Shown: positions 1 to 40,026 of the stretch, in pieces | How the letters are laid out: each line of letters starts with the position of its first letter | Numbering within the stretch: the stretch's first letter is position 1 | Source: Chloroflexia bacterium | GTDB lineage: Bacteria > Chloroflexota > Chloroflexia > QHBQ01 > JADMIH01 | Assembly (NCBI GenBank): GCA_038324555.1 | Contig: JBBQIC010000001.1 | Span: 1 to 49,778, forward strand | Direction: 5' to 3' | DNA: 49,778 bases | Notes under the pieces: generated by a model | The model's input: only the letters and a program-made list of their open reading frames with translations | The model's database searches: none | Told to the model about the DNA's origin: nothing | Position numbers and translations under genes: made by a program

Positions 1-1506
1 GGCTCCCAGGTCCGTAACCCCGCGCTCTTCACTGATTACACCTTCTGCGTCGGCGCCCCAGGCTCCTGCGGCGCAACCCCAACAAACACCCGTACCAGCA
101 CGCGCGTACCGCCCACCAATACTCGCACCAATACATCCACAGCTACACCCGCGCCAGCGACGGCGACAGGTACGTTTACTAACACACCTACAGCTACACG
201 CGCTCCAGCGACAGGTACGTTTACTAACACGCCTACACCCGCGCCAGCGACGGCGACGGCGACGGCGACAGGTACGTTTACTAGCACACCTACACCCGCA
301 CCGCCCACCAACACCCCCACGCGGACCAACACACCGGCGTGTGGCCCTGTGACCTACGTCAGCACGGATGCGGCCAGGGCTATCCCAGATTACAACACGA
401 TCAGGTCTCTACTCTCTATCCCGGATGGGCCGATCATCTCACAGATAGAAGTGGTAAACGCCAACTTTGGTCACACCTTTCCCGCTGACCTTGACGTGTT
501 CTTGGTCAGCCCTTCGGGTACGAGAGTGGAACTATTCACCGATGTGTGCTCAAGCCTGGACTGGACTTCTGCCAACACGGGCTTTACTCTATCCAGCAGT
601 GGGAGTCGCGTCATCGGTTCCGTATGCCCTCCAGGCGCCCTTACCTACCGGCCTGAAGGCTCGCTAAACGATCTAATAGGCCAGGCCTCAGCAGGGACCT
701 GGGTATTGGAAGTTACCGACGACAGGATTGGGGACGTGGGTACTCTCAATAGATGGGGACTTCGGATCACGGGTGATTCGACTTGCGGAGCCATAACTCC
801 TACGCCTACAGGCACGTACACGCCCGTATCCACAGCAACCAGCACGTCAGCGCTTCCCACGTTCACCCCAACTAATACCGCTACACGCACGCGCACGCCG
901 ATAACGGCCCCTACTTTTACCCCTACAAACACGCCCCCGCTTGTGAACACGCCAACTAATACGCGCACAGTTGCCAGGAGTTCTACCCCTACTGTGACGC
1001 CCACCGACACTCCTACCATCAGGCCCACAGGCACAGCAACAAGCACACCCACTAACACGCCGTGCCCGGGTAGCACCACGATACAAGGGGCTATAACCAC
1101 CAGCGATGTGCGGCAACGGGGCAGAATCGTGCGGAGCCATATCCCAAGCGTATGCGGCACAATCAAAGCTTGCCCCGCCCTCGATAGCAGCAGCAGCCTG
1201 AGGTACTTTGACTCCTACTCGTTTGCCAACACCACAGGCATCGCTCAATGCGTTACCATCAGCCTGACTACGGCGTGTTCAGGAACTAACGACATATTCA
1301 GCACGGCCTACCTGGGAACTTATCATTACACAGACCTGTGTATTAACTACAGAGGAGACATCGGATACAGCCCAGGCGAAGTGGGCGGTACTAGCAGTTA
1401 CTCTATTTCCGTACCCGCAGGGGCAACCTTCGTGGTGGTAGTGCATGAGATAACGCCCGGCGCAGGGTGCTCGGCTTATACACTCAACATAGAGACTTGC
1501 CACTAG
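1..1506 (+). CDS. Secreted protein with proprotein-convertase P-domain, Thr/Pro-rich linkers and a Cys-containing C-terminal domain (5' partial)
   Basis: Frame 1 is open from nt 1 to TAG 1504-1506. The track 'M' at 349 is an internal GTG. FGHTFPADLDVFLVSPSGTRVELF...GTWVLEVTDDRIGDVGTLNRWGLRI fits the P_proprotein pattern. TPTNTPT-type linkers lie on both sides. Confidence 0.75.
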   Translation, partial: GSQVRNPALFTDYTFCVGAPGSCGATPTNTRTSTRVPPTNTRTNTSTATPAPATATGTFTNTPTATRAPATGTFTNTPTPAPATATATATGTFTSTPTPAPPTNTPTRTNTPACGPVTYVSTDAARAIPDYNTIRSLLSIPDGPIISQIEVVNANFGHTFPADLDVFLVSPSGTRVELFTDVCSSLDWTSANTGFTLSSSGSRVIGSVCPPGALTYRPEGSLNDLIGQASAGTWVLEVTDDRIGDVGTLNRWGLRITGDSTCGAITPTPTGTYTPVSTATSTSALPTFTPTNTATRTRTPITAPTFTPTNTPPLVNTPTNTRTVARSSTPTVTPTDTPTIRPTGTATSTPTNTPCPGSTTIQGAITTSDVRQRGRIVRSHIPSVCGTIKACPALDSSSSLRYFDSYSFANTTGIAQCVTISLTTACSGTNDIFSTAYLGTYHYTDLCINYRGDIGYSPGEVGGTSSYSISVPAGATFVVVVHEITPGAGCSAYTLNIETCH

Positions 1507-1542
1507 GTGGCCGGGATATGAGGCAGCGAACCAATTGCGGAC

Positions 1543-1591
1543 ATCAGCCATCAGCTATCAGTTATCAGCCGTCAGAAGCTGGTAGCTGGTA
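1543..1591. repeat. Heptamer tandem hairpin (atcagcc x5 / gctggta x2)
   Basis: atcagcc atcagct atcagtt atcagcc gtcagaa gctggta gctggta. The arms pair with G-U wobbles. Confidence 0.6.
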
Positions 1592-1630
1592 ACTCACCTT
1601 ACGCAGACTCTTGAAGGAAAAGGACTACGC

Positions 1631-1660
1631 CAACCCGTAGGGGCAGGCCCCTACGGGTTG
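1631..1660. repeat. GC palindrome caacccgtaggggc-ag-gcccctacgggttg
   Basis: 14-bp perfect arms read directly from the sequence. Confidence 0.85.
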
Positions 1661-1696
1661 CTCCCCAAGTCTGGACCCTTATGCGGTATGCAGACA

Positions 1697-1717
1697 GGGC
1701 GACCACAAGGGTCGCCC
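1697..1717. repeat. GC palindrome gggcgacc-acaag-ggtcgccc
   Basis: 8-bp perfect arms. Confidence 0.7.
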
Positions 1718-1838
1718 CTACGGATAGATTTTCCTCTACCTCTAACTCTGCACAGTAACGTATCCACACCTCAATTAGCCGATTTCACCCTTATGTGATA
1801 AAATACCCTCTGCCTAGACTGATAACAGAGGGTGCCTA

Positions 1839-2888
1839 ATGCCGAACGAAATCCTGATAAATCAACTCGATATGCTGCGCGACACATACGCCCAACAACA
1901 ACGCACTGTAGTGGCGTTGCAAACCGCTTTCAAGGCCGTCACAAACGCGCAGAGCAAGGCGCAAAAGGTGTTACAAGAACTCAGCGCGCAGAGCGTGGGG
2001 ACCAGTATCACCGGCGTCAACGACTCGCAAGAAGCCTTTGCCCGCACGCGATTGAAGGAAGAGGCTATTGATCCTCTGCTGCCGGAACTACGCCGCGAGC
2101 TAAAGGGTCTGACCTCCCTGACTGCCGCGCTCAGAGACGCGAGCACTGCGCTTCGTAGCGAGCCGGTGGACGTGGTGCGCCTCGATAGAGCCTCCACGAT
2201 GCTGCAAACCGCCAGGCAGCAAGACGTGCTTGATCTGCTCCCACAGCTTGGCGAAGAATTGGACCTGGCACAGCGTGTGCTGGGTGATGAGTTCGGCCAG
2301 AGACTGCGCGACGCACTTGCCGAACAGGGCGTCGAGATCGGCGGGCGCGCCCCAAGGTTCGAGATTGGGCGTTTCGAGCTTGAGGCTAACTTCGCCCGGC
2401 GATTCGTCGCGTTACGCTACGGCAAAGATATAGTGGTGCCCCACGCTCCTATCACAGTGGACGCTGTCATGAAGGCTTACCAGGCAGCAGCCAAAGCAGT
2501 GTGCGGGCGCAACCAGGACGGCAATGCCTGGATCGCCCAGTTCCACGAAGCCTACCAGGTGGCGAAGCGCAAACGTCCGGCGAACGGAACGCGGGTAAAC
2601 ATCGTAGAGTGCTACATCGAGATAGTGCTGCTACGCCAGGGACGCGCATTCTCAAGCGAGCCGAGCAAGCGCACCTTTACCGACTACACGCGGGCGCAAT
2701 TCGCCTATGATTTCTACGAGTTCGCCGACCGCCTACGTCTCGCATACAACGACCATATGGTCAAAGCCCACAGCGCCACCAAATCCCAGACCGATAGCCC
2801 GGCAAAGAGCTTCTGGATCGTCGAAGGCGACACACCCTACGACGGGCGCTATATCGCCGACGTGGAATTCGTGAAACGTGAAACGTGA
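1839..2888 (+). CDS. Hypothetical protein: helical/coiled-coil N-terminal half plus uncharacterised C-terminal domain. First gene of the ATPase/helicase cluster.
   Basis: 349-aa ORF with ATG preceded by GAGGG (cagagggtgcctaATG). I recognise no family motif. The last 5 codons and the TGA lie inside the gtgaaac repeat. Confidence 0.6.
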   Translation: MPNEILINQLDMLRDTYAQQQRTVVALQTAFKAVTNAQSKAQKVLQELSAQSVGTSITGVNDSQEAFARTRLKEEAIDPLLPELRRELKGLTSLTAALRDASTALRSEPVDVVRLDRASTMLQTARQQDVLDLLPQLGEELDLAQRVLGDEFGQRLRDALAEQGVEIGGRAPRFEIGRFELEANFARRFVALRYGKDIVVPHAPITVDAVMKAYQAAAKAVCGRNQDGNAWIAQFHEAYQVAKRKRPANGTRVNIVECYIEIVLLRQGRAFSSEPSKRTFTDYTRAQFAYDFYEFADRLRLAYNDHMVKAHSATKSQTDSPAKSFWIVEGDTPYDGRYIADVEFVKRET

Positions 2889-2939
2889 AACGTGAAACGT
2901 GAAACGTGAAACGTGAATTACGATAATCACGTTTCACGT
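2871..2939. repeat. gtgaaac-family hairpin element
   Basis: (gtgaaac) x~6, loop gaattacgataatc, then acgtttcacgt. Contains the stop of the 1839-2888 gene. Confidence 0.9.
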
Positions 2940-2959
2940 ATAGAAGGAGAAGAGGAGCT

Positions 2960-4258
2960 GTGCTGCCTGAACCACGCCTCGCCCGGCAGATCATCGAAAC
3001 ACTCGGCCAATCGGGCACACCTATGTCAAAGGGCGTCAGCTACTACAACGTGGGTAACGAGTCGCTGCTCAACGCCATTGACACGCACTACCTGGGGTCA
3101 TACCTGGCGGACGGCGGGGCGGCCTTCAAACTGGTGGTTGGAGACTACGGCAGTGGCAAGTCGCACTTCCTGTATTGCGTGCGCGACCGCGCATGGCAAC
3201 GCGATTTCGCCGTGAGCAAGGTGGACCTCAGCCCCAAGGAAAGCCCCTACGACGATCAGCGCCGGGTATACTCGGCGGTGGCGTCCTCGCTTGTGTGGCA
3301 CGAATTGGGTAGCGGGAGCGAAGATGAGCAGGGGCTGTCGCGCTTCCTCGAAGGCACGCTGAGGCGGTTGGTCGCGCCGCACGGCTTCGATTTCCAGGAC
3401 GAGGGCGCGCAAGACGTTCCCGAAGTGCGCGCTTTCCTGCATACTCTGGAAACCACGCCCGTTGACAGCCTGAGTTTCCATAGGGCCATACAGGGCTACT
3501 TCAACGCGCTACTTCGGGGGCAGGAGCGGCGCGTCGAAACGCTAGAACGTTGGTTGCACGGCGAAGAAGTGACGCCGGAAGATATGCGCGACCTGCGCTC
3601 TATTGGTGTGACCGAGAAGATCAACAAGAACAACGCCTTCAAGATGCTGCGCTCGCTGTGCCAGGCCGTGCGCGCAATGGGCTATACAGGATTGGCCTTG
3701 CTGTTCGATGAAGGCGACCGCATGATGAGCATCGGCGGCAAAGCCGAGAAGACGGCCACCGACAACCTGCGCGAAGTGATAGACCGATGCCGGGAGGACT
3801 TACCGGGCGCGCTCTTCATGTACGCGGTCCCGCCCGATTTCCTGCATACGGTAGTGCCCAAGTATCCGGCGCTACAGCAGCGCGTCCAGGCTGCCGACTA
3901 CTTCTCGCGCGTCAACCCTTTCAGCCCACAGATAGACCTCGACCATCTCGATCTGCCCGACGGCCAACTGCTGATTGAGATCGGCAACCGCCTCCTGCCC
4001 ATCTTCGAGACGGCCTACGATGTGAGGCTTGATCACGAGAAGCAGGCCGCGAACATCGCAACTTTGTCCGGAGCCGCGTGCAATTCGTATCTGGCGATCA
4101 GCCATCGCCGGTTGTTCGTGAAGGCTATCGTCACCGAATGGTATCGCCAGAAAGAGACCGGCGAAAGTGTCATTTCGCCAGAGCACGCCGACGCCCTTAT
4201 CAAAGGGCAAAGTGAAGCCCTGAACCGCCAGGCGGACGAAGAGCAGGGGGCATATTAG
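2960..4258 (+). CDS. P-loop ATPase, BrxD/DUF2791-like
   Basis: GTG start after GAAGGAGAAGAGGAG. Walker A GDYGSGKSHF (3140-3169) and Walker B ALLFDEGD. The N-terminal 'IIETLGQSGTP' segment before the P-loop is typical of the DUF2791 architecture. Family assignment is from motif memory, not from a search. Confidence 0.65.
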   Translation: MLPEPRLARQIIETLGQSGTPMSKGVSYYNVGNESLLNAIDTHYLGSYLADGGAAFKLVVGDYGSGKSHFLYCVRDRAWQRDFAVSKVDLSPKESPYDDQRRVYSAVASSLVWHELGSGSEDEQGLSRFLEGTLRRLVAPHGFDFQDEGAQDVPEVRAFLHTLETTPVDSLSFHRAIQGYFNALLRGQERRVETLERWLHGEEVTPEDMRDLRSIGVTEKINKNNAFKMLRSLCQAVRAMGYTGLALLFDEGDRMMSIGGKAEKTATDNLREVIDRCREDLPGALFMYAVPPDFLHTVVPKYPALQQRVQAADYFSRVNPFSPQIDLDHLDLPDGQLLIEIGNRLLPIFETAYDVRLDHEKQAANIATLSGAACNSYLAISHRRLFVKAIVTEWYRQKETGESVISPEHADALIKGQSEALNRQADEEQGAY

Positions 4259-4262
4259 GGGA

Positions 4263-4334
4263 GTTAGAACGTTGGAACGTTGGAACCTGCCAACGTTCTA
4301 ACGTTCTAACGTTCTAGCGTTCTAACGTTCTAAC
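4263..4334. repeat. gttggaac/gttctaac-family hairpin element (8-nt units)
   Basis: gttagaacgttggaacgttggaac-ctg-ccaacgttctaacgttctaacgttctagcgttctaacgttctaac. Fills the gap between the two ATPase genes. Confidence 0.9.
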
Positions 4335-4336
4335 AC

Positions 4337-5761
4337 ATGGAGCAGTCACCCAAAGTCAATCACTCGCAGTTTGGCCCCGGAACGCTTCTTAAGACGTTCA
4401 TGGGCGGTTTTGAGTGGGAAGTGCAGTTTGATTCGGGGCGGCGATTCCGCCTGCCCGCAAAAGAGTTCGACGGAGTACAAGGGGTGGCGGGACCAGGGGT
4501 TGGGGACTGGGGATCAGAAGTTAGGGACCGGTCCCCAATTTTGCAGCGCGCGGCGACGTTGGACGTTGACCAGTTTCGGGCGCAGCAAACGCTGGAGAGC
4601 CTTCGCGTTGGCATCGTGCCTGTGCAGGACGCCGAAACGCTCACTATCGGTCTGGAAGCCGAGCGGGTGACGCTGGACAGGGCGTTGGACCGTAGTAGAG
4701 AACGGGGCGGCGACGTGCTGGCGATCATCGGGGATTATGGCTTCGGCAAGAGCCACTTTATCGAACTGACGGCGCGGCGCGGGTTGCGCGAGAACTTCAT
4801 CGTGGCAGGCGCAAGCCTCGACCTGGTGGAAACGCCGCCCGGCAAGGCGCACAAGATTTACGAGGCGCTGGTGACGTCGCTGCGTTATCCCGACACCGAG
4901 CAGCGCGGACTGGCTCCCCTGCTGAATAAGGCGCTGGAAAACCCCTCGGTGATCGCCCGCTTCGTAGAGTTGTGCCCCCGCGAACCGAGGAGTTGCCCAC
5001 TCGCGTCGGCGTTGCTGGCGCTCCAGGATTGTCCCAGCCAATTAGCGTTCGACCAGATCGTGCAGTGGTTGAGCGGGCAGGCCAAACCGCAGGCTGAGAT
5101 GAAAAGCTGCCTTAAGAAGCCGCCTCCCCTCTATGTCACACGCGAAACAGCGCGGCAGTATACCTACCTGCTTACAGGCATTAGCACGCTGGCGACCATG
5201 CTGGGATATAGCGGGCTAGTCGTGCTGATTGACGAGTCCGAGCACTATTCGCTGCTGCGCACTTCACAGCGCGAGCGGGCCGACTCGTTCTTCAAGGCGA
5301 TGATAGTTAGCGCGTTGGGGCTGAACAACGCTCGCATAGACGCCCGCGAAATCCCCGACAACTCTCGCGCCGAGTACCCTGTGAGCTACGCCTCCGAAGC
5401 CCACATGCTATTCCTCTTTGCTCTCACGGAGAGCGCGGACCGGATGCCGGTGGGCACATGGCTCGCGCCCTCGCATATAGTCCGATTGGACGACCGTTTT
5501 ATCGAGAAGGACATCCGCGAGTTCTTCGAGACGCTGCTGCGCTACCATGCTCTGGCCTACAGCTACTCACCCACGCCCGAAGGCCATGGGGAGACCGTCC
5601 CCAGCGCAACGGAGATGCTCTCTCGCGCTCTTGGTCAGCACCGTGTGAACCTGCGCCAGCTGATCCGCACCGCAGTGACGGTGTGCGACCTGCTCTACCT
5701 CTACCCCGACTATCTGCCCGCCAAGCTGCTGGAAGAATTGAAGCGTGGGTTGAGGGTTTAA
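4337..5761 (+). CDS. P-loop ATPase, BrxD/DUF2791-like paralog with N-terminal Tudor/SH3-like domain
   Basis: Walker A GDYGFGKSHF (4731-4760), Walker B VVLIDESE, and 'ESLRVGIVPVQDAETLTIGLE' ahead of the P-loop. The N-terminus HSQFGPGTLLKTF..WEVQFDSGRRFRLPAKEF resembles the PcrA/UvrD C-terminal Tudor-like (DUF3553-type) motif. Confidence 0.65.
   Translation: MEQSPKVNHSQFGPGTLLKTFMGGFEWEVQFDSGRRFRLPAKEFDGVQGVAGPGVGDWGSEVRDRSPILQRAATLDVDQFRAQQTLESLRVGIVPVQDAETLTIGLEAERVTLDRALDRSRERGGDVLAIIGDYGFGKSHFIELTARRGLRENFIVAGASLDLVETPPGKAHKIYEALVTSLRYPDTEQRGLAPLLNKALENPSVIARFVELCPREPRSCPLASALLALQDCPSQLAFDQIVQWLSGQAKPQAEMKSCLKKPPPLYVTRETARQYTYLLTGISTLATMLGYSGLVVLIDESEHYSLLRTSQRERADSFFKAMIVSALGLNNARIDAREIPDNSRAEYPVSYASEAHMLFLFALTESADRMPVGTWLAPSHIVRLDDRFIEKDIREFFETLLRYHALAYSYSPTPEGHGETVPSATEMLSRALGQHRVNLRQLIRTAVTVCDLLYLYPDYLPAKLLEELKRGLRV
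4489..4538. repeat. cagggat/ggggatc-family element inserted in frame in the second ATPase
   Basis: gggaccaggggttggggactggggatcag...gggaccggtcccc. ttggggac (4500-4507) pairs with gtccccaa (4531-4538). Encodes GPGVGDWGSEVRDRSP. Confidence 0.65.
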
Positions 5762-5790
5762 CTGCCCGAGTTATATGCCCACACACCTAC

Positions 5791-5819
5791 TTGATGCTGC
5801 TATCGCATCCTGCTACAAT
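5791..5819 (+). promoter_or_regulatory. Sigma-70-like promoter for vapBC (TTGATG-17 nt-TACAAT)
   Basis: ttgatg (5791-5796), 17-nt spacer, tacaat (5814-5819). Lies 65 nt upstream of the antitoxin ATG. Confidence 0.45.
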
Positions 5820-5883
5820 GAACTTGAGGCATGGTGCGCAATCGTGCGCTTAAGTCTAAACTATAAATCAAAGAGAAATAACA

Positions 5884-6174
5884 ATGGAGATTACCCTAAC
5901 ACCGGACATTGAACAAGCTCTGCGGGAGCAAGCTGAACGGCGCGGGACTACGCCGGAGCAGCTTGCGATAGAGAGTTTGCGCCAGCAGTTCGTGCATCCA
6001 ACGCAGAGCGAGCGACCGGCAGAGGGCCAAAGAACGCTCGCAGATTTCCTCGGCGACTCCATCGGAGTTCTACACAGCCACGAGCACGTTCCAGGTGGTG
6101 CACGGATGTCTGAGGTTACAAGTGAGACCTTTACGAAAGGGCTAATCGAGAAGAGGGCGCGAGGTCAGCTGTGA
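5884..6174 (+). CDS. Type II antitoxin (VapB-like)
   Basis: 96-aa ORF overlapping the downstream PIN gene by 4 nt (GTGA). N-terminus MEITLTPDIEQALREQAERRGTTPEQLAIESLRQ is typical of small DNA-binding antitoxins. Confidence 0.7.
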   Translation: MEITLTPDIEQALREQAERRGTTPEQLAIESLRQQFVHPTQSERPAEGQRTLADFLGDSIGVLHSHEHVPGGARMSEVTSETFTKGLIEKRARGQL

Positions 6175-6581
6175 TTCTTATGGATACAGGCCCCATAATC
6201 GCCCTTTTAGATACGGACGATTCTAATCATACAGCTTGCATGGCTACCGCACAACGCTTGCCCCCTGAGCCACTGCTCACAACGTGGCCGTGCTTTACCG
6301 AAGCCATGTATTTGCTAGGGGCAGTAGGTGGCTACCGGTACCAGGCAAAACTTTGGCAGCTGTGGGAAGCAAAGCGACTCGTTTTATATGACTTCACGTC
6401 CACAGAGCTAGAGCGTATGCCTCTATTGATGGAAAAATACCGCGATACACCGATGGACCTTGCCGATGCATCGTTGATTGTATTGGCAGAGAGTCTTTCT
6501 CTCAAACAGATTTTCACGGTGGACAGAGATTTCTACGTCTACCGTTTGGCGGATGGAACGGCGCTGGAAGTTATCAAGTGA
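6171..6581 (+). CDS. vapC: PIN-domain toxin, VapC family
   Basis: ILMDTGPIIALLD (first acidic residue), DLADASLIVLAE, FTVDRDF. Spacing is PIN-like. Coupled to the upstream antitoxin. Confidence 0.8.
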   Translation: MILMDTGPIIALLDTDDSNHTACMATAQRLPPEPLLTTWPCFTEAMYLLGAVGGYRYQAKLWQLWEAKRLVLYDFTSTELERMPLLMEKYRDTPMDLADASLIVLAESLSLKQIFTVDRDFYVYRLADGTALEVIK

Positions 6582-6632
6582 TAAGGGTTATCGCAGTGCT
6601 GTAATCGTCAGACAGAGATAAAGGCAGAATCC

Positions 6633-7232
6633 ATGGCGCTACAACTTGAACCAAGAACCGGCATCAGGCGGCACATTGTCTCTCTCGATGAATACGACCG
6701 GATGATAGAGGCAGGGGTGTTTGAGCCGGAAGCGCGCGTTGAGCTTATTAGAGGTGAGATTGTAGATATGCCCCCTCCCGGACCTGAACACGAAACCTCA
6801 GTTACACGGTTACACCTACTCTTCTTTGAACAGTGCCGCAGGCGTGCCATTGTGTGGCCGCAGGGCAATTCCATTGGCTTACCCCAAAGCACATCACGCC
6901 CGCAACCCGATGTTACAATACTGAAATGGCGTGACGACCTCTACTCAGGCAAGCGTCCCATGCCGGAAGATGTAATCCTAATTGCTGAAGTTGCAGATAG
7001 CAGCCTCAAACTCGACCGTGGGAGTAAGTTAGGACTCTACGCTGAGGCAGGTGTTCAGGAATACTGGGTGATCAACCTCGTGGACGGCATTGTTGAAATA
7101 TATACAAACCCCAGCGCAGGCAAGTATCAGGTCGTCAGGGCAGCCCACGAGGGTGAGACGTTGCGACTGCCAGGCGGTCTGGATGGGGGCGTTGCTGTCA
7201 GCGACATATTGAGCCAGGAGTTGACACCCTGA
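6633..7232 (+). CDS. Uma2-family (DUF820) putative PD-(D/E)xK endonuclease
   Basis: ELIRGEIVDMPPPGPEHE, PDVTIL, LIAEVADSS...KLGLYAEAGVQEYWVINL is the characteristic Uma2 pattern. Confidence 0.8.
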   Translation: MALQLEPRTGIRRHIVSLDEYDRMIEAGVFEPEARVELIRGEIVDMPPPGPEHETSVTRLHLLFFEQCRRRAIVWPQGNSIGLPQSTSRPQPDVTILKWRDDLYSGKRPMPEDVILIAEVADSSLKLDRGSKLGLYAEAGVQEYWVINLVDGIVEIYTNPSAGKYQVVRAAHEGETLRLPGGLDGGVAVSDILSQELTP

Positions 7233-7242
7233 GACCCGTCTG

Positions 7243-9654
7243 ATGGATGAGGGCATGGAACCTGATCGCCTCGAAAATGGTCACGCGCTAAAATCAGCCC
7301 TGCCGCGCACATGGGGCGCGTTCTTTGGCCGCCACGGCAATTTCACTCCCGCCCAGCTTGCCGCTATTCCGCCGTTGCTGGCGGGCGAAAACGTGCTTCT
7401 GTGCGCTCCTACCGCCTCCGGCAAAACAGAGGCCGCGCTTGCTCCGCTAATTGAGCGCCACCTGTCGCTGTCAGGCAGGACCGAGTATACACCAGCCGAT
7501 GGACGATGGACGATGGACGATGGACGCACCCAATCTCCAGCGTCGTCAACCGTCCATCGTCCATCGTCCATCGTCCATCGTCCATCATCCCTAACGATCC
7601 TCTACCTTCTGCCCACGCGGGCGCTGATCAGCGACTTGTGCGCCCGCCTTGCCGCGCCACTGGAAAGGCTGCGCGTCTCTTTTGCGGTCAAAACGCACGA
7701 CTTCACCACCTTCGACCCCAAGCGGCCCGCCGATCTGCTGCTGACCACGCCGGAGTCGCTCGATGCGCTGCTTGCGAGTCAGGCGAAGATACTGGCGGGC
7801 GTGCGGGCGGTGGTGATAGACGAATTGCACGTTTTCGACGGCACGCCTCGTGGCGATCAACTTCGGGTTGTGCTGAACAGGCTGCGACAAGTGCGCGCCC
7901 ACGCAGCCCGCGTAGGGGACGCGACTGACGATAGCCTGCAACTCGCCGCGCTTTCAGCGACCCTCACGCAACCCGAAGCCGCCGCAACGCGCTTCCTGGC
8001 TTCGGCCAAAGTGGTGCGAGCGTCGGGCCATCGCACGATACAGGCCGAGCAGATTGCACTCGCTGTGCCGGACGACGGACGATGGACGATGGACGATAGT
8101 GAAGAATCGTCCATTGTCCATCGTCCATCGTCCATAACGACCGATGCTCTGCTCAACTACCTGAGCGATTTCCGCAAGCGCGGTTGGCGCAAGGCGCTGG
8201 CCTTCTGCAACACCCGCAGCGAAGTAGAGACCTATGCCGCAGCGGTGCGGGCAGCAGGATCGCCTTTCGGCGACGCCGTGTACGCGCACTACTCTAACCT
8301 GGCGTGGGAGAGACGGCGGGAAATCGAGCAGCAGTTCGCACAGGCGCAAGCAGCCATCTGCTTCGCCAGTAGCACGCTCGAACTGGGGATAGACATCGGC
8401 AACATTGACGTGGCTCTACTCATCGGCGCGCCGGGAAGTATCGAGGCATTCGTACAGAGGACCGGAAGGGCCGGTCGCCGTCAGCCGGTAGCGAGGGTGG
8501 CCTGCTTTTATCGCACACCCCTTGAACGTATCACCTTCGACGCGCTAATCAGGGCTGAAAGTCCAGGGTCCAAGGTTCAAGGTCCAAAGTCCAACATCAA
8601 TGGGATTGGACCTTCAATCCTGGACCCTGGACCCTGGACCGCCGGAGTTGAGCAGGCGACATCAGAGAGGGACGCAGCTACATCGTCGCACTTTCACCCA
8701 TCGGTCGCCATACAGCAGATATTCAGCTTGCTCAAGCAGAGTCCGACAGGCGCGGTACGGCTCAACCCTTTAGCCGGGTTGTTTGCCGGGATGCTCTCTG
8801 CCGACGACCTTCGGGCGATAATGGGCACGTTGCAGGCTTTGGGGTATTTACAGAGCGGGCGGGCCGGGGAATGGCGAGCGGGGGAGCAGCTCAACCAGCT
8901 TGCCGACCTCCAATCGGCTGAATACACCCCTCTCAGCCTGCACAGCAATATTCCAACGTCAGGCTCGAAACCGATCAAAATCCGGGACCGGTACAGCCAG
9001 CGCGTTGTGGCAAGTGTCGACCGGCAGTGGTTTGACCGCGACCAACTTACGTTGGAAGGGCGGCCTATGAGTATAGAGTGGTACGACGGCGAGTCGCTGT
9101 GGGTCTCTGCCCAGCGCGGTCACGACACCGAGGACGTGCCGGCACGCCTGCGCTATCTCTCGACGCGACAGATATTGAGCTACGACCTTGCACGGCGCTT
9201 CCCGCCTGTTCTTGGCCTGCCGCCCGCGACAGCGCCGTTGGTCCAGCAAGATAACGGCTTGGTATGGTTTCACTGGTTAGGGGACGTTTATGGGCGGGCG
9301 GCCCTAGACCTGGTAAAGTACACGATGCCCGCAATGGAAACACCGGAGCCTGGGCTGTGCTTACTGCTGCAAGACGTGGGTGACGCACGAGGCGGGAGCG
9401 GGCTTCGCGCCGCCATCCTGTCCTGGACGCACGAGCAGGTCGTACACTACCTCCACGACAAGTATCGCCGCTATGAACCGATGCTGGCGCTTGGAGCCTA
9501 TCACCACCTGCTGCCTGTGGAACTGCGCCGCCGGGCCGTAGTGGAGCAGTTTGACGTGCCGCGTTTCTTGCAAGCCGTAGAAAATCTCAATATTGGACAT
9601 GCTGGTGAAGCCCCCACCGAGGAGCTAGGGGATTTTATAAATGGAATAGGGTGA
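7243..9654 (+). CDS. Lhr-like DEAD/DEAH-box SF2 helicase with long C-terminal extension
   Basis: Motif I CAPTASGKTEAA (about 7405-7428), motif II DELH (7819-7830), ALSATL, and motif VI VQRTGRAGRR. Carries three in-frame hairpin-element insertions. The stop codon lies inside an agggtgagggaat element. Confidence 0.85.
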   Translation: MDEGMEPDRLENGHALKSALPRTWGAFFGRHGNFTPAQLAAIPPLLAGENVLLCAPTASGKTEAALAPLIERHLSLSGRTEYTPADGRWTMDDGRTQSPASSTVHRPSSIVHRPSSLTILYLLPTRALISDLCARLAAPLERLRVSFAVKTHDFTTFDPKRPADLLLTTPESLDALLASQAKILAGVRAVVIDELHVFDGTPRGDQLRVVLNRLRQVRAHAARVGDATDDSLQLAALSATLTQPEAAATRFLASAKVVRASGHRTIQAEQIALAVPDDGRWTMDDSEESSIVHRPSSITTDALLNYLSDFRKRGWRKALAFCNTRSEVETYAAAVRAAGSPFGDAVYAHYSNLAWERRREIEQQFAQAQAAICFASSTLELGIDIGNIDVALLIGAPGSIEAFVQRTGRAGRRQPVARVACFYRTPLERITFDALIRAESPGSKVQGPKSNINGIGPSILDPGPWTAGVEQATSERDAATSSHFHPSVAIQQIFSLLKQSPTGAVRLNPLAGLFAGMLSADDLRAIMGTLQALGYLQSGRAGEWRAGEQLNQLADLQSAEYTPLSLHSNIPTSGSKPIKIRDRYSQRVVASVDRQWFDRDQLTLEGRPMSIEWYDGESLWVSAQRGHDTEDVPARLRYLSTRQILSYDLARRFPPVLGLPPATAPLVQQDNGLVWFHWLGDVYGRAALDLVKYTMPAMETPEPGLCLLLQDVGDARGGSGLRAAILSWTHEQVVHYLHDKYRRYEPMLALGAYHHLLPVELRRRAVVEQFDVPRFLQAVENLNIGHAGEAPTEELGDFINGIG
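7498..7586. repeat. gatggac-family hairpin, in frame in the helicase
   Basis: (gatggac) x4, 24-nt loop, (cgtccat) x5. Encodes [10 protein letters not shown]...[15 protein letters not shown]. Confidence 0.9.
8071..8135. repeat. gatggac-family hairpin, in frame in the helicase
   Basis: gacgacggacgatggacgatggacgat-agtgaagaat-cgtccattgtccatcgtccatcgtccat. Confidence 0.9.
8561..8640. repeat. gtccaaa/ggtccag-family hairpin, in frame in the helicase
   Basis: gtccagggtccaaggttcaaggtccaaagtccaac...tggaccttcaatcctggaccctggaccctggacc. Confidence 0.85.
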
Positions 9655-9707
9655 GGGAATAGGGTGAGAAATAAAGACTACTCCCTCACCCTACTCCCTC
9701 ACCCTAT
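9644..9707. repeat. agggtgagggaat-family hairpin between convergent helicase and phoU (likely bidirectional terminator)
   Basis: ggaatagggtgagggaatagggtgag-aaataaagacta-ctccctcaccctactccctcaccctat. Contains the helicase TGA. Confidence 0.9.
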
Positions 9708-9718
9708 TTTATCTCTTC

Positions 9719-10384
9719 TCAATACTTGGAAGAATTGAACTCCTCCATTTTGCCGGTAATGAGGAAGGCTACGCGCTCGCAGATGTTGGTCACACGGTCT
9801 GCTATGCGCTCAAGATTATGGGCCACCCACAAGAGGTGCGTAGCTCGATTGATAGTGCCTGGATCGGCCATCATGAAGGTGAGCAGTTCTCGGTATATCT
9901 GCTCATAGAGCGCGTCTACCTGGTCGTCTTCATTGGCAATCTGGCGGGCTGCTTCTGCGTCGCGCTTCATGAAAGCGTCCATGCTTCGACGCAGCATGGA
10001 TCGGGTTAAATCGTCCATTTGCGGAATGTCAATGAGCGGCTTTAAGGGTGGCTCATCGCCCGTCATTGTGACGATTTTGGCAATGCCTTCGGCGTGATCG
10101 CCCATGCGCTCAAGGTCCGTGATGATATTGAGCACCGCCGCGATGATGCGCAAATCAGACGCAATCGGCTGCTGTGTGGCTATCAGCAGCAAGCACTCTT
10201 CTTCGATGCCGAAGCGTTGCTGGTTGATCTTGAAGTCGTCGTTGATGACCTCTTGCGCCAGCTTCTGGTCACGGCTCTTGAGGGCCTCAACCGAGCGTTG
10301 AATGGCCTTCTCGACCATACTCGCCATGACGAGCATTTCTTCCTGCACCCGTTGCAGTTCTTTGTTGAACAGTTCCCTGACCAT
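9719..10384 (-). CDS. phoU: Phosphate signalling complex protein PhoU
   Basis: Two PhoU repeats (DLERMGDHAEGIAK / NLERIADRVTNICE). AAGGAG lies upstream of the ATG. Located at the end of the pst operon. Confidence 0.9.
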   Translation of the reverse strand: MVRELFNKELQRVQEEMLVMASMVEKAIQRSVEALKSRDQKLAQEVINDDFKINQQRFGIEEECLLLIATQQPIASDLRIIAAVLNIITDLERMGDHAEGIAKIVTMTGDEPPLKPLIDIPQMDDLTRSMLRRSMDAFMKRDAEAARQIANEDDQVDALYEQIYRELLTFMMADPGTINRATHLLWVAHNLERIADRVTNICERVAFLITGKMEEFNSSKY

Positions 10385-10399
10385 CGCGTTCTCCTTAGT

Positions 10400-10468
10400 T
10401 AGGGTGAGGGAGTAGTCCTATTCCTATTCCCTCACCCTATTCCCTCACCCCACACCCCTCACCCTATC
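10400..10468. repeat. agggtgagggaat-family hairpin between pstB and phoU
   Basis: tagggtgagggagtag...attccctcaccctattccctcacccc...cctcaccctat. Supplies the last codons and the stop of pstB copy 2. Confidence 0.85.
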
Positions 10469-11280
10469 CGCCCCGTGATATACGCTTCCGTCCGAGGGTC
10501 TCTCGGCGACGTAAATATCTGGCGAGTGGCAGCTACCTCGATCAGTTCGCCCGCCCGCTCCTCGTTCATCATCAACACGCCCACCTGGTCCGAGACGCGG
10601 GCCGCTTGCTGCATATTATGGGTCACTATGACGATTGTGATACTCTCCTTCAACTCGTACATCAGATCCTCTATCTTCAAGGTGGATATGGGGTCGAGGG
10701 CCGAAGCAGGCTCGTCCATCAGCAGCACTTCGGGTTCGACCGCAAGGGCGCGGGCGATGCACAGACGCTGCTGCTGCCCGCCGGAGAGCGATGTGGAGGG
10801 CTGGTCAAGCTTATCTTTTACCTCGTCCCACAGGGCCGCTCGCCGCAACGCGGTCTCCACGTATTGTTGCAAATCTGCGGCATTGCGGATACCGACTATC
10901 GTAAGTCCGATTGCTACGTTGTCGAAGATGCTTTTTGTGACCAGCGGGTTCGGCCTCTGGAAGACCATACCGACCGCCCGCCGCACTTCCCCCACATCCG
11001 CACCCGAATAGATGTCGGTGTCACCGAGCATGACGCGACCCGTCACTCGTGCTCCGGGCGCGGTCTCGTGAATACGGTTCAAGCACCTGAGCACCGTGGA
11101 TTTGCCCGAACCCGACGGCCCTATCAACCCGGTTATCCTGTTGCACGGTACGTCCATGCTCACGCCATTCACGGCCAGGAACTTGCCGTACCAGGCGTTC
11201 AGTTCCTGTATGCTCAGGGCTATCTGCTGCCCCGAAGTGGCACGTTGAGTGCTGTCTATCGCGTGTTCCATTGTGCTCAT
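10459..11280 (-). CDS. pstB: Phosphate ABC transporter ATP-binding protein PstB (copy 2)
   Basis: [49 protein letters not shown] start at ATG 11280 (MSTMEH...) because the 80 upstream codons of the long ORF are only a translation of the gatggac repeat array. Confidence 0.9.
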
Positions 11281-11289
11281 ATTGCTCCT

Positions 11290-11443
11290 GACGATGGACG
11301 ATGGACGATGGACGATGGACGATGGACGATGGACGATGGACGATGGACGATGGACGATGGACGATGGACGATGGACGATGGACGATGGACGATGGACGAT
11401 GGACGATGATGAACGGTCGTCCATCGTCCATCGTCCATCGTCA
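11290..11443. repeat. Expanded gatggac array (~17 units) with a short complementary arm
   Basis: A heptamer tandem runs 11291-11408. The loop is atgaacggt. The reverse arm cgtccatcgtccatcgtccatcgtc is only ~3.5 units. Confidence 0.95.
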
Positions 11444-12316
11444 TCATCCAAACCGTCCCGTAATGAAGTCCTCGGTCTCCTTCTGGGCGGGCGTGAGGAA
11501 CATCTGCATGGTAGGGCCAACCTCTTTAATGCGGCCTGCCAGGAAAAAGGCGCAGTATTCGGAGACGCGGGCCGCTTGCTGAAGGTTGTGGGTAACTATC
11601 ACTGTAGTATAGTTCTTCTTCAACTCGACTATCAGGTCCTCTATTTTGCCTGTGGAGATGGGGTCGAGGGCAGAAGCAGGCTCGTCCATCAGCAACACTT
11701 CGGGGCGCAGAGCTATAGCGCGGGCGATGCACAGGCGCTGCTGCTGCCCGCCGGAGAGCGCGAACGCCGACTTCTTGAGCTTATCCTTCACGTCGTCCCA
11801 AAGCGCGGCTTCCCGCAGGCTCTTTTCCACGCGGTCGGATATTTCGCTCCTGGCATACTTGTGGACGTGAAGAGCATAGGCTACGTTGTCGTAAATAGAC
11901 TTGGGAAATGGGTTGGCCCTCTGGAAGACCATACCTACCCTAAGGCGTAACCTGACCACATCAACGTCGCTTCCAAGCAATTCCTGGGCGTCCAGCCTTA
12001 TGCTCCCCTCGGCGCGGGCGGATGGCACAATGTCGTTCATGCGGTTGATGCAGCGCAGAAAGGTGGTCTTGCCGGAACCCGAAGGCCCGATGAGCGCCGT
12101 AACTTGCTTCTCGCGTATGTCCAGGTTGATGCCGTAAAGCGCCTGCTTCGCGCCGTAGTAAAAATCGAGGTTGCTGGCTGTCACTTTCGGTTTGGCATCA
12201 GGGTTAGCCTCAAATACAGGCCGCAACCCGGTCAGCAGAGCCGGTTTTGGTTGGTCCATTAAGCTGCTTCCTGGCCCCCTTCCGTTGGGGGCTACTGTCT
12301 TTAGGTAGTTGCCCAT
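11444..12316 (-). CDS. pstB: Phosphate ABC transporter ATP-binding protein PstB (copy 1)
   Basis: [47 protein letters not shown]. The true start may be ATG 12259 (MDQPKP, AGGAAG 7 nt upstream), giving 271 aa. Confidence 0.85.
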
Positions 12317-21195: not shown

Positions 21196-21327
21196 GCAGG
21201 GTGGATGCAAAGTCGGTGGAGCGTGCCCCTTGACGATAGACGATAGACGATAGACGATTGAGCAGGCATCGTCTATCGTCTATCGTCTATCGTCTATCGT
21301 CGGATAAGCGACTTTGCACCAGCCCTA
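21196..21327. mobile_element. MITE-like element: ~18-bp TIRs around a gatagac hairpin core, flanked by an 11-bp direct duplication
   Basis: Direct repeat tctgtgagaga at 21185-21195 and 21328-21338. Left end gcagggtggatgcaaagtcg. The reverse complement of the right end is tagggctggtgcaaagtcg. The core is (gatagac) x3.5-ttgagcagg-(catcgtct) x4.5. Confidence 0.7.
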
Positions 21328-23352: not shown

Positions 23353-23421
23353 GACGATGGACGATGGACGATAGACGTTAGTAAGCCATCGTCCATCGTC
23401 CATCGTCCATCGTCTATCGTC
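23353..23421. repeat. gatggac-family hairpin between fabH and fabD
   Basis: gacgatggacgatggacgatagacg-ttagtaagc-catcgtccatcgtccatcgtccatcgtctatcgtc. Confidence 0.9.
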
Positions 23422-26716: not shown

Positions 26717-26781
26717 AAAGTTGGAAGGTTGGAAGGTTGGAAGGTTGGAACAGTCAACCTTCCAACCTTCCAACCTTCAAC
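26705..26781. repeat. ggttggaa-family hairpin (8-nt units)
   Basis: gttgaaggttagaaagttggaaggttggaaggttggaaggttggaa-cagtc-aaccttccaaccttccaaccttcaac. Contains the methyltransferase TAG. Confidence 0.9.
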
Positions 26782-38128: not shown

Positions 38129-38193
38129 GACGATGGACGATGGACGATGGACGATGGACGATTGAACGAGCATCGTCTATCGTCCATCGTCTC
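38129..38193. repeat. gatggac-family hairpin upstream of comEC
   Basis: (gacgatg) x~5, loop tgaacgagc, then atcgtctatcgtccatcgtctc. Confidence 0.9.
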
Positions 38194-38265: not shown

Positions 38266-40026
38266 TCACTTCTCGGCTCTGACCTCAAACAACGAAAACG
38301 ACGTGCCTGGACAGCCTACCTGCGTCAACTTGTATCCATTCTTCAGATGATGATACGTTTCACCTATCCTGGTGTTACCCCATTGCTCCTCAAACCCGGA
38401 CAGAGGCAAAGCGAGATAGCCCCGCACGTCTGACTCTCCGCCCTCTAGAGCCTGGTCAACCGAACCGGGCGTTTCAAGGAAAAGCTCGCGCGGGTTCAAT
38501 CTGGTATACTGACGTAGCGTAAAGGTTATCCCAAAGCTGAATAACGGCTTTTGGGGCGAACTACTACCAACGGTTTCTTGTACACAGCGCGCCGCCCGCA
38601 AGTAGTCCTCCTTCTCAGTATACAAGCCTCGAAAATCAGCCCAGGCGGTGACTGCGGAGATTAGCAGGCCAACTCCCGCAGCGCATAGCACCAGGAGTAT
38701 GGCAATCGTGTGCAGCCGGTAGACAATTTTGGATTTTGGATTTTGGATTTTGGAGTTGGTAAGTTTAGTCCAAAATCCAAAATCCAAAATCCAAAACCCC
38801 CCTAAGCCAGCTACGATTGCCATCGGCGGCAGGTAGCTCAATACAAAGCGGTCGGCCTGATATATGTTGCCGCTGTAGAACCCCGTGAAGAGCAACCACC
38901 AACCTACAAGCAAGCCTGCGGCTGCGAGCGCCTTCCACCGCACAAGCGCCAACAAGCCCAACATCAGCATAGGTAGCAGCCCCAACCCAAGCGCGCCGAG
39001 CGACAGGAGGGGGCGCAGCAGGAAGAAATACCCCATCGGCCACTTATAGCTCAAATGACCATCAGGGCTATCAAACGACGACTGCCAGGCGTGCGCAGGG
39101 TTCCAGGTACTTATCACCGGGCTTGGAAGCGACCCCATAGGGTGCGCCAGGTTGTGCAGAAGCTGCAAACCCACAAGAAAGACTAGAGGAGCAGCTAGGG
39201 GCCAGAAGCGTCGCACCAATAGGGACCAGGGGTCAGGGATCAGGGATCGGTTAGTAGCCTTCGCCTCCCGATCCCTGACCCCTGACCCCTGATCCCTACT
39301 TCCTATGATAAATAGGAAGATAGGGAGCAACAGCAGAGGGTAAATATAACGGGTTATGGAGGCGATGCCGAGGCACAAACCCCCGGCGAGGCCCGTCCAT
39401 AGGGTGCGGGAATAGGGTGAGGGAGTGGTTACTATTCCCTCGTCCCTCACCCTATTCCCTGCGCTAAGATAGCGCACTGCCAATAGAGCGCCCAAAACAG
39501 CCCAGAAAAGGCCCGCCATATCCGCCATAACGACCAGAGAAGCCCGCACCGCTAGAGGAGATACCGCCATTATTAGACCGGCGAGGACTGAGCCATATAG
39601 CACGTTGCGCGGTAGGGTGAGGGATGAGGGAGTAGTTCCTATTCCCTCATCCCTCACCCTACTCCCTATACATTGCCAAGTAGCTATCATCAGCATGGAC
39701 GTAAGCATAGGAGTAAGCGTGCCTGCCACGAAGTTGATAGCCTGCCCTGCGATAGTGTTGAGTCCGGTGATGGGGCTGACTAATGCCATCTGTATGTGAT
39801 AGCCTAGCGGCCATACTGATATTGGCGGCGTTCCCCAGACCGTAAGCCACTGCCAGAGCTTGCCGGGGTCTGTCCAGACCTTGACTAAATCCTGCGTTGC
39901 CGTAAGATAGAAAAAGGCGTCCTGGCCGTAAAGACCGTCAAACGGAAAGAGCAGGAGCAACAGGCCGCGAAATAGCAGCGAGACCAGCCCTACCAGAAGA
40001 ATAGCCATCCAATCCTTGCTAAACAC
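38266..40026 (-). CDS. GT-C fold membrane glycosyltransferase (GT39/ArnT/PMT_2-like)
   Basis: More than 10 predicted TM helices. N-terminal loop FPFDGLYGQDAFFYL. Carries four in-frame hairpin-element insertions. Confidence 0.6.
   Translation of the reverse strand: MFSKDWMAILLVGLVSLLFRGLLLLLFPFDGLYGQDAFFYLTATQDLVKVWTDPGKLWQWLTVWGTPPISVWPLGYHIQMALVSPITGLNTIAGQAINFVAGTLTPMLTSMLMIATWQCIGSRVRDEGIGTTPSSLTLPRNVLYGSVLAGLIMAVSPLAVRASLVVMADMAGLFWAVLGALLAVRYLSAGNRVRDEGIVTTPSPYSRTLWTGLAGGLCLGIASITRYIYPLLLLPIFLFIIGSRDQGSGVRDREAKATNRSLIPDPWSLLVRRFWPLAAPLVFLVGLQLLHNLAHPMGSLPSPVISTWNPAHAWQSSFDSPDGHLSYKWPMGYFFLLRPLLSLGALGLGLLPMLMLGLLALVRWKALAAAGLLVGWWLLFTGFYSGNIYQADRFVLSYLPPMAIVAGLGGFWILDFGFWTKLTNSKIQNPKSKIVYRLHTIAILLVLCAAGVGLLISAVTAWADFRGLYTEKEDYLRAARCVQETVGSSSPQKPLFSFGITFTLRQYTRLNPRELFLETPGSVDQALEGGESDVRGYLALPLSGFEEQWGNTRIGETYHHLKNGYKLTQVGCPGTSFSLFEVRAEK
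38727..38797. repeat. ttggatt-family hairpin, in frame in the GT-C transferase
   Basis: ttttggattttggattttggattttgga, a 15-nt loop, then ccaaaatccaaaatccaaaatccaaaac. Encodes FWILDFGFW...KIQNPKSKI. Confidence 0.9.
39220..39298. repeat. cagggat-family hairpin, in frame in the GT-C transferase
   Basis: tagggaccaggggtcagggatcagggatcgg, a 17-nt loop, then ccgatccctgacccctgacccctgatcccta. Confidence 0.9.
39399..39460. repeat. agggtgagggaat-family hairpin, in frame in the GT-C transferase
   Basis: atagggtgcgggaatagggtgagggag-tggttacta-ttccctcgtccctcaccctattccct. Confidence 0.85.
39611..39668. repeat. agggtgagggaat-family hairpin, in frame in the GT-C transferase
   Basis: ggtagggtgagggatgagggagtag-ttcct-attccctcatccctcaccctactcccta. 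Confidence 0.9.

Follow-up and report, generated by a model that had tools for sequence, protein, structure and literature searches.

Shango is a system with experimentally demonstrated anti-phage activity, and its operon encodes a non-enzymatic leader (SngA, a TerB protein), an AAA+ ATPase of the PF10923 type (SngB) and an Lhr-like superfamily 2 (SF2) helicase (SngC). A comparable module occurs in bacteriophage exclusion (BREX) systems of types 2 (Pgl) and 6, in which the ATPase BrxD is tightly linked to the helicase BrxHI and the pair has been proposed to act in helicase loading. In the same report, ATPases of the BrxD type are placed among the ORC/Cdc6 AAA+ proteins (PMC12839542). Here, a four-gene cassette is described from a stretch of 49,778 nucleotides (nt), referred to as the window, of a Chloroflexia bacterium (assembly GCA_038324555.1, contig JBBQIC010000001.1, positions 1 to 49,778). 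Judged from its sequence, the cassette is a distinct, unnamed relative of the ATPase and helicase module of Shango (SngB-SngC) and of BREX types 2 and 6 (BrxD-BrxHI), in which a leader protein (g1) and an extra ATPase stand in for TerB or for the core genes of BREX. Three features set it apart: the g1 family, an obligate pair of ATPase paralogues (g2 and g3) and a Tudor domain on one of them. It is probably an undescribed nucleic-acid surveillance system, for which we infer a role in defence. The four genes are as follows:

1839..2888, + strand: g1, 349 amino acids (aa), coiled-coil protein of an uncharacterised family
2960..4258, + strand: g2, 432 aa, GTG start, ORC/Cdc6-type AAA+ ATPase, PF10923 (BrxC_BrxD)
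4337..5761, + strand: g3, 474 aa, second PF10923 AAA+ ATPase, with an N-terminal Tudor domain and linker
7243..9654, + strand: helicase, 803 aa, Lhr/BrxHI/SngC-like SF2 (DExH)

A sequence-only reading of the window had proposed this anatomy, an unknown protein with two diverged PF10923 ATPases and an Lhr-like helicase, and it was borne out by family scans with Pfam, NCBIfam and the defence hidden Markov models of PADLOC-DB 2.0 (2023). All four open reading frames (ORFs) lie on the + strand where that reading had placed them, and every motif it had listed is present in the translations: GDYGSGKSHF and ALLFDEGD in g2, GDYGFGKSHF and VVLIDESE in g3, and CAPTASGKTEAA, DELH, SAT and TGRAGRR in the helicase. 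The proposed BrxC_BrxD membership of both ATPases is confirmed by PF10923 scores of 160.2 bits for g2 (1e-46) and 103.4 bits for g3 (1.7e-29), against a gathering threshold of 22.2 bits, and the two share 21% identity, as expected from the suggestion of a duplicated and strongly diverged ATPase. The cassette matches no complete known system in PADLOC-DB 2.0, which agrees with the view that it is neither canonical Shango nor a type 2 BREX remnant, and literature full-text searches returned no description of it.

Among the PADLOC models, BrxD is the best match of g2 (1e-35) and SngB the second (4e-30). BrxD is also the best match of g3, followed by SngB (5.5e-14), and g3 aligns to both models only from residue ~78. 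The cut-off of the NCBIfam BrxD equivalog (NF033438), 350 bits, is reached by neither ATPase (122.6 bits for g2 and 77.9 bits for g3). In BLASTP comparisons with real proteins, g2 gave 84-112 bits with BrxD and 49-77 bits with SngB, at only ~25% identity to either, and it is the more BrxD-like paralogue of the pair. Both paralogues retain the ATPase signatures, and Walker A (GxxGxGKS) and Walker B (hhhhDE) are kept in 53 g2 and 52 g3 orthologues. The length of g2 is almost always 432 aa. Pairwise scores are 204-459 bits among g2 proteins and 65-277 bits among g3 proteins, and ~30-70 bits between the groups. The two paralogues thus fall into distinct groups of orthologues in bacteria and archaea alike, and the duplication is therefore ancient.

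The helicase, an Lhr-like SF2 enzyme of predicted 3'-5' polarity, contains the Pfam DEAD and Helicase_C domains and matches the PADLOC models BrxHI (7e-61) and SngC (4e-57, over residues 33-423). Its motor is 31% identical to real SngC and to real BrxHI, whereas the C-terminal halves of these proteins cannot be aligned to it. The best solved matches to the motor are the Lhr and Lhr-core repair helicases, namely the mycobacterial (M. smegmatis) Lhr structures 5v9x and 7lhl (1e-19). Its top NCBIfam matches are Lhr-type models as well, but the scores are far below the equivalog cut-offs. The C-terminal 350 aa of the window helicase have no Pfam match, and the Lhr winged-helix domain WHD_Lhr (PF19306) was seen only on a single orthologue (locus L071). 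The operon context, with two AAA+ ATPases and g1, is also unlike the known context of Lhr.

Compared with Shango, the cassette has the same general layout, its helicase matches the SngC model, its ATPases hit the SngB model but score better with BrxD, and an obvious nuclease effector is absent from both systems. The differences lie in the leader, which is unrelated to SngA, and in the number of ATPases: Shango has one, and the cassette has two paralogues, one with a Tudor domain that the SngB examined does not have. The Pfam matches of the window and of the related loci with annotation include no TerB gene. The possibility that g1 is a diverged TerB/SngA protein was tested directly by hhalign of the g1 family profile against SngA (848 aa, Roseobacter denitrificans pTB1), which gave a probability of 0.15%, and it was rejected. 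In addition, g1 and 97 members of its family had no match to TerB, TerB_N or TerB_C (Pfam, E<=1) or to the PADLOC SngA model, so the reported lack of a recognisable TerB stands. The reference Shango locus of R. denitrificans pTB1 (L074, 9618-13035) adjoins SAVED, MPN/JAB and ThiF/E1-like genes, which are accessory genes of the CBASS (cyclic-oligonucleotide-based antiphage signaling system) type, and is also near a DUF433/PIN-like pair.

The comparison with BREX, for which a real type 2 locus (L075) was used, leads to a similar picture. BrxD is the best-scoring PADLOC model for both ATPases and BrxHI for the helicase, but in the cassette the ATPase is duplicated, one copy bears a Tudor domain, and g1 is added. 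None of the BREX core genes PglZ, PglX, PglW and PglY/BrxC turned up in the window or among the related loci with annotation. For PglZ, PglX and PglW, whose absence had been noted before, this covers the Pfam and PADLOC matches of the genes at 349-11520, the top 25 Pfam families in the rest of the window and ten Pfam-annotated related loci. The cassette is thus a member neither of Shango, because TerB was tested for and not found, nor of BREX type 2, because PglZ, PglX and PglW are absent from these scans and the BrxD cut-off is unmet. Decay of a canonical Shango or type 2 BREX system that lost TerB or PglZ/PglX/PglW would agree with the matches of the ATPases and helicase to the BrxD/SngB and BrxHI/SngC models. 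However, the four-gene set is intact and coupled across phyla and domains, g2 is far from real BrxD and SngB both in identity and in score (122 versus 350 bits), g1 is a conserved family of its own and no TerB fragment, and no BREX or TerB gene is among the Pfam matches of the window and the ten related loci. On these grounds, such a remnant is so improbable that it can be regarded as effectively refuted.

The leader protein g1 was described as lacking any recognisable family, and it indeed has no match in Pfam, NCBIfam or PADLOC; scans of the 97 family members with Pfam and PADLOC gave nothing consistent. At least 370 close homologues of ~344 aa occur in Chloroflexota. An exhaustive profile search extended the family to 521 clusters at 50% identity, most of which are a form of ~283 aa without the first ~65 residues. 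AlphaFold2 predicts the whole protein with confidence (pLDDT, the predicted local distance difference test score, of 90), as a bundle of three long helices at the N-terminus (~residues 4-161) and an alpha/beta domain at the C-terminus (~residues 165-349). Modelled alone, the C-terminal domain gave a pLDDT of 90.8 and a predicted template modelling score (pTM) of 0.87. Neither the whole model nor the C-terminal domain had a Foldseek match at E<=0.001 in PDB or BFVD. The remaining Foldseek hits were coiled-coil or BAR-like structures with low template modelling scores and weak ORC-lid-like ones (E>4), and sequence profiles searched against PDB returned coiled-coil noise and nothing else. The family-wide invariant residues of g1 (Q267, F271, P275, Y283, R285, F288 and D291) do not look like a hydrolase site. 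It can be hypothesized that g1 acts as a scaffold or sensor. In the Asgard archaeal copies (L072), a helix-hairpin module of the Rho_N/SAP-like kind (PF07498, 1.4e-5) is inserted in g1.

The second ATPase, g3, has a domain in front of the ATPase that the real BrxD and SngB proteins examined do not have, since these begin directly at the ATPase:

4349..4480, + strand: PcrA/UvrD-type Tudor domain, g3 residues ~5-48, motif V-x-H-x3-G-x-G ... G ... V-x-F

A Tudor-like N-terminal domain on one ATPase had been suggested from the sequence, and this suggestion is supported and can be refined to the PcrA/UvrD type. With an N-terminal profile built from 15 g3 orthologues, the six best PDB matches were all C-terminal Tudor domains of UvrD/PcrA (7egt_B at E=0.0033, then 7egs, 6yi2, 4c2t, 5dma and 1qhh). 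The Pfam family PF21196 was matched by 2 of the 15 orthologues, with a best E-value of 4.6e-5. The signature V-x-H-x2-F/L-G-x-G ... V-x-F is common to the PcrA/UvrD Tudor domain and the g3 N-terminus, and the motif is kept in long and short forms of the cassette. The position differs, because the domain is C-terminal on an SF1 helicase in PcrA/UvrD and N-terminal on an AAA+ ATPase in g3, where an RNA polymerase partner is putative. The PcrA/UvrD Tudor domain is reported to bind RNA polymerase and to be linked to R-loop suppression (PMC5397179, PMC8318588).

This domain gives weight to a different explanation, in which the cassette is a genome-maintenance module whose Tudor-bearing AAA+ loader brings the Lhr-like helicase to stalled or conflicting transcription complexes, in parallel to PcrA/UvrD. 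Such a role fits the combination of Lhr and a UvrD-type Tudor domain about as naturally as defence does. The closest solved relatives of the helicase are Lhr repair helicases, the g3 N-terminus resembles an RNA polymerase-binding Tudor domain linked to R-loop suppression, and the cassette contains no effector gene. The closest characterised protein families, on the other hand, both come from defence systems. The distribution and the neighbours of the cassette bear on this question as well, and on all the evidence genome maintenance is the less likely reading, behind defence.

A scan of 185,579 GTDB species representatives found 59 species loci, all in Chloroflexota (Anaerolineae, Aggregatilineales, Caldilineales, Chloroflexales, Roseiflexaceae and Thermoflexus). 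This number is a minimum, because the pattern that was searched for catches only 48% of close homologues. Among those of the 59 loci whose length allows the gene order to be read, most have g1-g2-g3-helicase. Co-location of the set in other genomes, on which the sequence-only reading depended, is found in dozens of independent genomes and is not a chance arrangement. The typical orthologous layout is that of a compact, tightly coupled operon:

g1, 344 aa; gap of 3 nt; g2, 432 aa; gap of ~11 nt; g3, ~466 aa
g3 and helicase overlapping by 4 nt; helicase, 684-741 aa

Distant relatives of g1 show the same arrangement. Eleven of them were inspected on their contigs, one of which (1.4 kb) was too short for neighbours. 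In all ten informative cases, eight of them short or divergent, two PF10923 genes come after g1, and in most cases a DEAD/Helicase_C gene is next. Relatives at ~20-25% identity keep the order in Dehalococcoidia, candidate division TA06, an unidentified bacterium and Promethearchaeota, where the taxonomy of the short form comes from a handful of named records. The short and divergent loci are the following:

L006, Dehalococcoidia: four genes
L067 and L068, metagenomic contigs: g1 and both ATPases, contig ending at or inside the fourth gene
L069, metagenomic contig: four genes
L070, candidate division TA06: four genes
L071, unidentified bacterium: four genes, helicase with WHD_Lhr
L072, 1935-7249, Promethearchaeota: four genes
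L073, metagenomic contig: first three genes only

Asgard archaea thus carry the whole cassette (L072), and a related protein (P0291) comes from Helarchaeota. A helicase was not found within 7-8 kb downstream of the first three genes in L060 and L062 (both Anaerolineae) and in L073, and L061, L064 and L065 have no helicase match. The g3 paralogue of L073 (406 aa) is without the Tudor domain. Since loci with only g1, g2 and g3 exist, these three genes may be the core of the system.

The cassette is distributed patchily among lineages, and synteny is not kept in the genes around it. Both observations count in favour of defence and against a genome-maintenance module, the spread being at least 59 of 185,579 species representatives, all in one phylum. 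In a third reading, the cassette might maintain or replicate an integrated mobile element, with the ORC/Cdc6-like ATPases as initiators or loaders for the element's own helicase. The classification of BrxD-type ATPases as ORC/Cdc6 AAA+ proteins (PMC12839542), the occurrence of the cassette in unrelated chromosomal contexts, the integrase and prophage genes beside L067 and a ParM-like gene upstream in L001 are consistent with this idea. However, most loci are without an integrase, transposase or repeat boundaries, and the family was not found in collections of plasmids, phages and viral contigs (PLSDB, INPHARED and IMG/VR). Furthermore, Lhr-like SF2 helicases are not replicative helicases, and the GC content of the cassette matches that of its flanks. 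A mobile-element module is therefore considered improbable.

The gene neighbourhoods of the short and divergent loci point to defence. Three of these eight loci directly adjoin restriction-modification (RM), OLD or Thoeris genes, which also counts against genome maintenance. L006 adjoins HsdM, HsdS and an OLD-family ATPase. At L067, the neighbours are a type III RM system together with an integrase and the tail gene of a prophage, and at L068 they are Thoeris genes (TIR and SIR2/STALD) and an HNH gene. A HEPN gene lies next to L072. In addition, the junction between g3 and the helicase repeatedly takes in toxin-antitoxin (TA) or defence modules, independently in each lineage, and insertion of TA and PARIS-like modules within the operon is a further point against a maintenance role. 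The junction intervals and their cargo are as follows:

Window, 5762-7242: vapBC and Uma2
L013, 8702-9347: Uma2
L021, 13751-17252: AAA_35 ATPase and probable ribbon-helix-helix (RHH)/PIN genes
L032, 12558-15054: PARIS-like AriA/AriB
L033, 13814-16026: PARIS-like AriA/AriB
L037, 13882-15760
L059, 13762-15541: PemK/MazF pair

An SPFH/Band7 protein is also among the junction cargo. In the window, the cargo consists of two elements:

5884..6581, + strand: vapBC-like pair, with a putative RHH antitoxin at 5884-6174 (96 aa) and a PIN toxin at 6171-6581
6633..7232, + strand: Uma2-family putative endonuclease of the PD-(D/E)xK fold, PF05685 at 7e-34, PADLOC single-gene candidate PDC-S03 at 1e-18

The PIN toxin was matched at 6.7e-9 and the antitoxin only weakly, as a FitA-like RHH protein (0.079); their ORFs overlap by 4 nt. 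The GC content drops to 0.52 in 6001-7000, across this block. Orthologous loci lack the vapBC pair, and their g3 and helicase genes share a 4-nt overlap. Uma2 lies directly upstream of the helicase with a gap of 10 nt, and a copy with 74% identity occupies the same position in L013 only (8773-9351); there the tblastn match extends just past the start of the helicase. The vapBC and Uma2 genes are a lineage-specific insertion inside the operon and lie outside the conserved system. Uma2 may nevertheless be a lineage-specific accessory gene, perhaps recruited as a nuclease partner instead of being a passive insertion.

Several observations weigh against a defence role, and some of them favour genome maintenance. 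The long form in Chloroflexota, including the window, sits among housekeeping genes. Around 19 long-form loci, 150 flanking ORFs gave one clear defence match (SoFic), the other matches being generic ABC-ATPase and cysteine-desulfurase genes, so that these loci were not found to lie in defence islands. The claim that the window itself resembles a defence island also fails, because vapBC and Uma2 form an insertion inside the operon, and the flanks and the rest of the window are housekeeping. The true flanks are a proprotein-convertase-like gene upstream and the pst/phoU operon downstream, and elsewhere the window carries genes of the core chromosome, among them the pst operon and the genes for biotin carboxylase, NusB and ComEC. 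Conservation of g2 is very strong, with 63-88% identity across the majority of Chloroflexota orthologues and 51-57% in the loci that diverge most (L060-L066), a level that is unusual for a defence gene. A recognisable effector such as a nuclease or toxin is not in the cassette core, the collections of plasmids, phages and viral contigs hold no copy, and the first three genes occur in some loci without a nearby helicase. Finally, the E-values behind the Tudor assignment are modest (0.0033 for the best PDB match, and 4.6e-5 for PF21196 in 2 of 15 members).

When both sides are considered, defence against phages or other mobile DNA is the most likely role, and we give it about an even chance. The way in which such a system could work is suggested by its parts. 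The paralogues g2 and g3, which both retain Walker A and Walker B, would form a hetero-oligomeric AAA+ assembly. This assembly may be scaffolded or regulated by g1, as suggested by the finding that g1 is translationally coupled and that its invariant residues do not resemble those of an enzyme. By analogy with PcrA/UvrD, the Tudor domain of g3 would tether the assembly to RNA polymerase or to another partner with a helicase-interaction motif. The assembly would then load or activate the helicase on nucleic acid arising from transcription or replication of the invader. In its full form, this proposal describes a new immune or surveillance system that is widespread among uncultured bacteria and has members in Asgard archaea, with an RNA polymerase-docked heteromeric ATPase pair, a novel-fold g1 that senses infection and an Lhr-like helicase loaded on invader intermediates. 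The full form is put forward tentatively, and we hold it with clearly less confidence than the defence role as such.

The copy in the window is intact but cluttered, with two intergenic hairpins and three in-frame hairpins in the helicase in addition to the vapBC and Uma2 block. These and a further inverted repeat are listed here:

2870..2939: heptamer-repeat hairpin, (CGTGAAA)x7 and partial complement, filling the g1/g2 gap and rewriting the last g1 codons
4263..4334: octamer-repeat hairpin, arms AACGTTGG / AACGTTCT, filling the g2/g3 gap
7497..7590: in-frame hairpin insert 1, (GGACGAT)n/(ATCGTCC)n, helicase residues ~85-116 (…DGRWTMDD…SSIVHRPSS…), between motifs I and Ia
8068..8140: in-frame hairpin insert 2, helicase residues ~276-297
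8561..8639: in-frame hairpin insert 3, helicase residues ~440-466, after the RecA2 domain
9645..9708: inverted repeat with 24-nt arms, 96% complementary, spanning the helicase stop codon at the cassette end, before the convergent phoU

The 71-nt and 78-nt gaps between the first three genes were predicted to be filled by hairpins, and hairpins of 7- or 8-nt repeats were found in both. The further prediction that the genes originally abutted and that the hairpins are secondary also holds, because the corresponding gaps in orthologous loci are only ~3 nt (g1/g2) and ~11 nt (g2/g3). The window helicase is ~100 aa longer than its orthologues because of the three in-frame inserts, of which the first has 30-nt inverted-repeat arms that are 100% complementary; none of the three is present in any aligned orthologue. 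As the orthologous genes abut or overlap, the gaps, the vapBC and Uma2 block and the helicase inserts of the window are all secondary. A scan for promoters and terminators gave sites that were not above the chance number.

Hairpins of this class, in which tandem 7-8-nt units are followed by their complement, such as (GACGATG)n/(CATCGTC)n, occur genome-wide. Others in the window are at 11290-11437, 21232-21295, 23386-23413, 26720-26778, 38129-38156 and 38726-38796. They sit in intergenic gaps and, in frame and free of stop codons, also inside the helicase ORF. They recall the cyanobacterial short tandemly repeated repetitive (STRR) heptamer repeats, but the genome is that of a member of Chloroflexota. 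At 11290-11408, 17 tandem GACGATG units lie in an N-terminal extension of ~100 aa of a PstB-like ORF (10459-11520, - strand). Its ABC domain begins at residue 118, and the true start codon is probably downstream of the repeat. The product of the upstream gene at 349-1506 has a proprotein-convertase P-domain and long linkers rich in Thr and Pro (TPTxT repeats), and this gene appears unrelated to the cassette.

To our knowledge, the ATPase and helicase pair of Shango and of BREX types 2 and 6 has no known mechanism. In the cassette, the pair works in the absence of both TerB and a BREX core, and two clues come with it. First, an obligate second ATPase paralogue carries a domain that binds RNA polymerase in UvrD/PcrA. 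Second, the conserved partner protein g1 has no known fold. If the cassette serves defence, it would add a family that was missed by screens of cultured genomes, present in Chloroflexota, candidate division TA06 and Asgard archaea, and it would provide a simpler model for studying the helicase module of BREX type 2 and Shango. If the reading of an RNA polymerase-docked surveillance system is true, it would also hint at the role of BrxD-BrxHI in BREX and of SngB-SngC in Shango. If the cassette is instead a repair module, it would represent a new way to couple an Lhr helicase to transcription.

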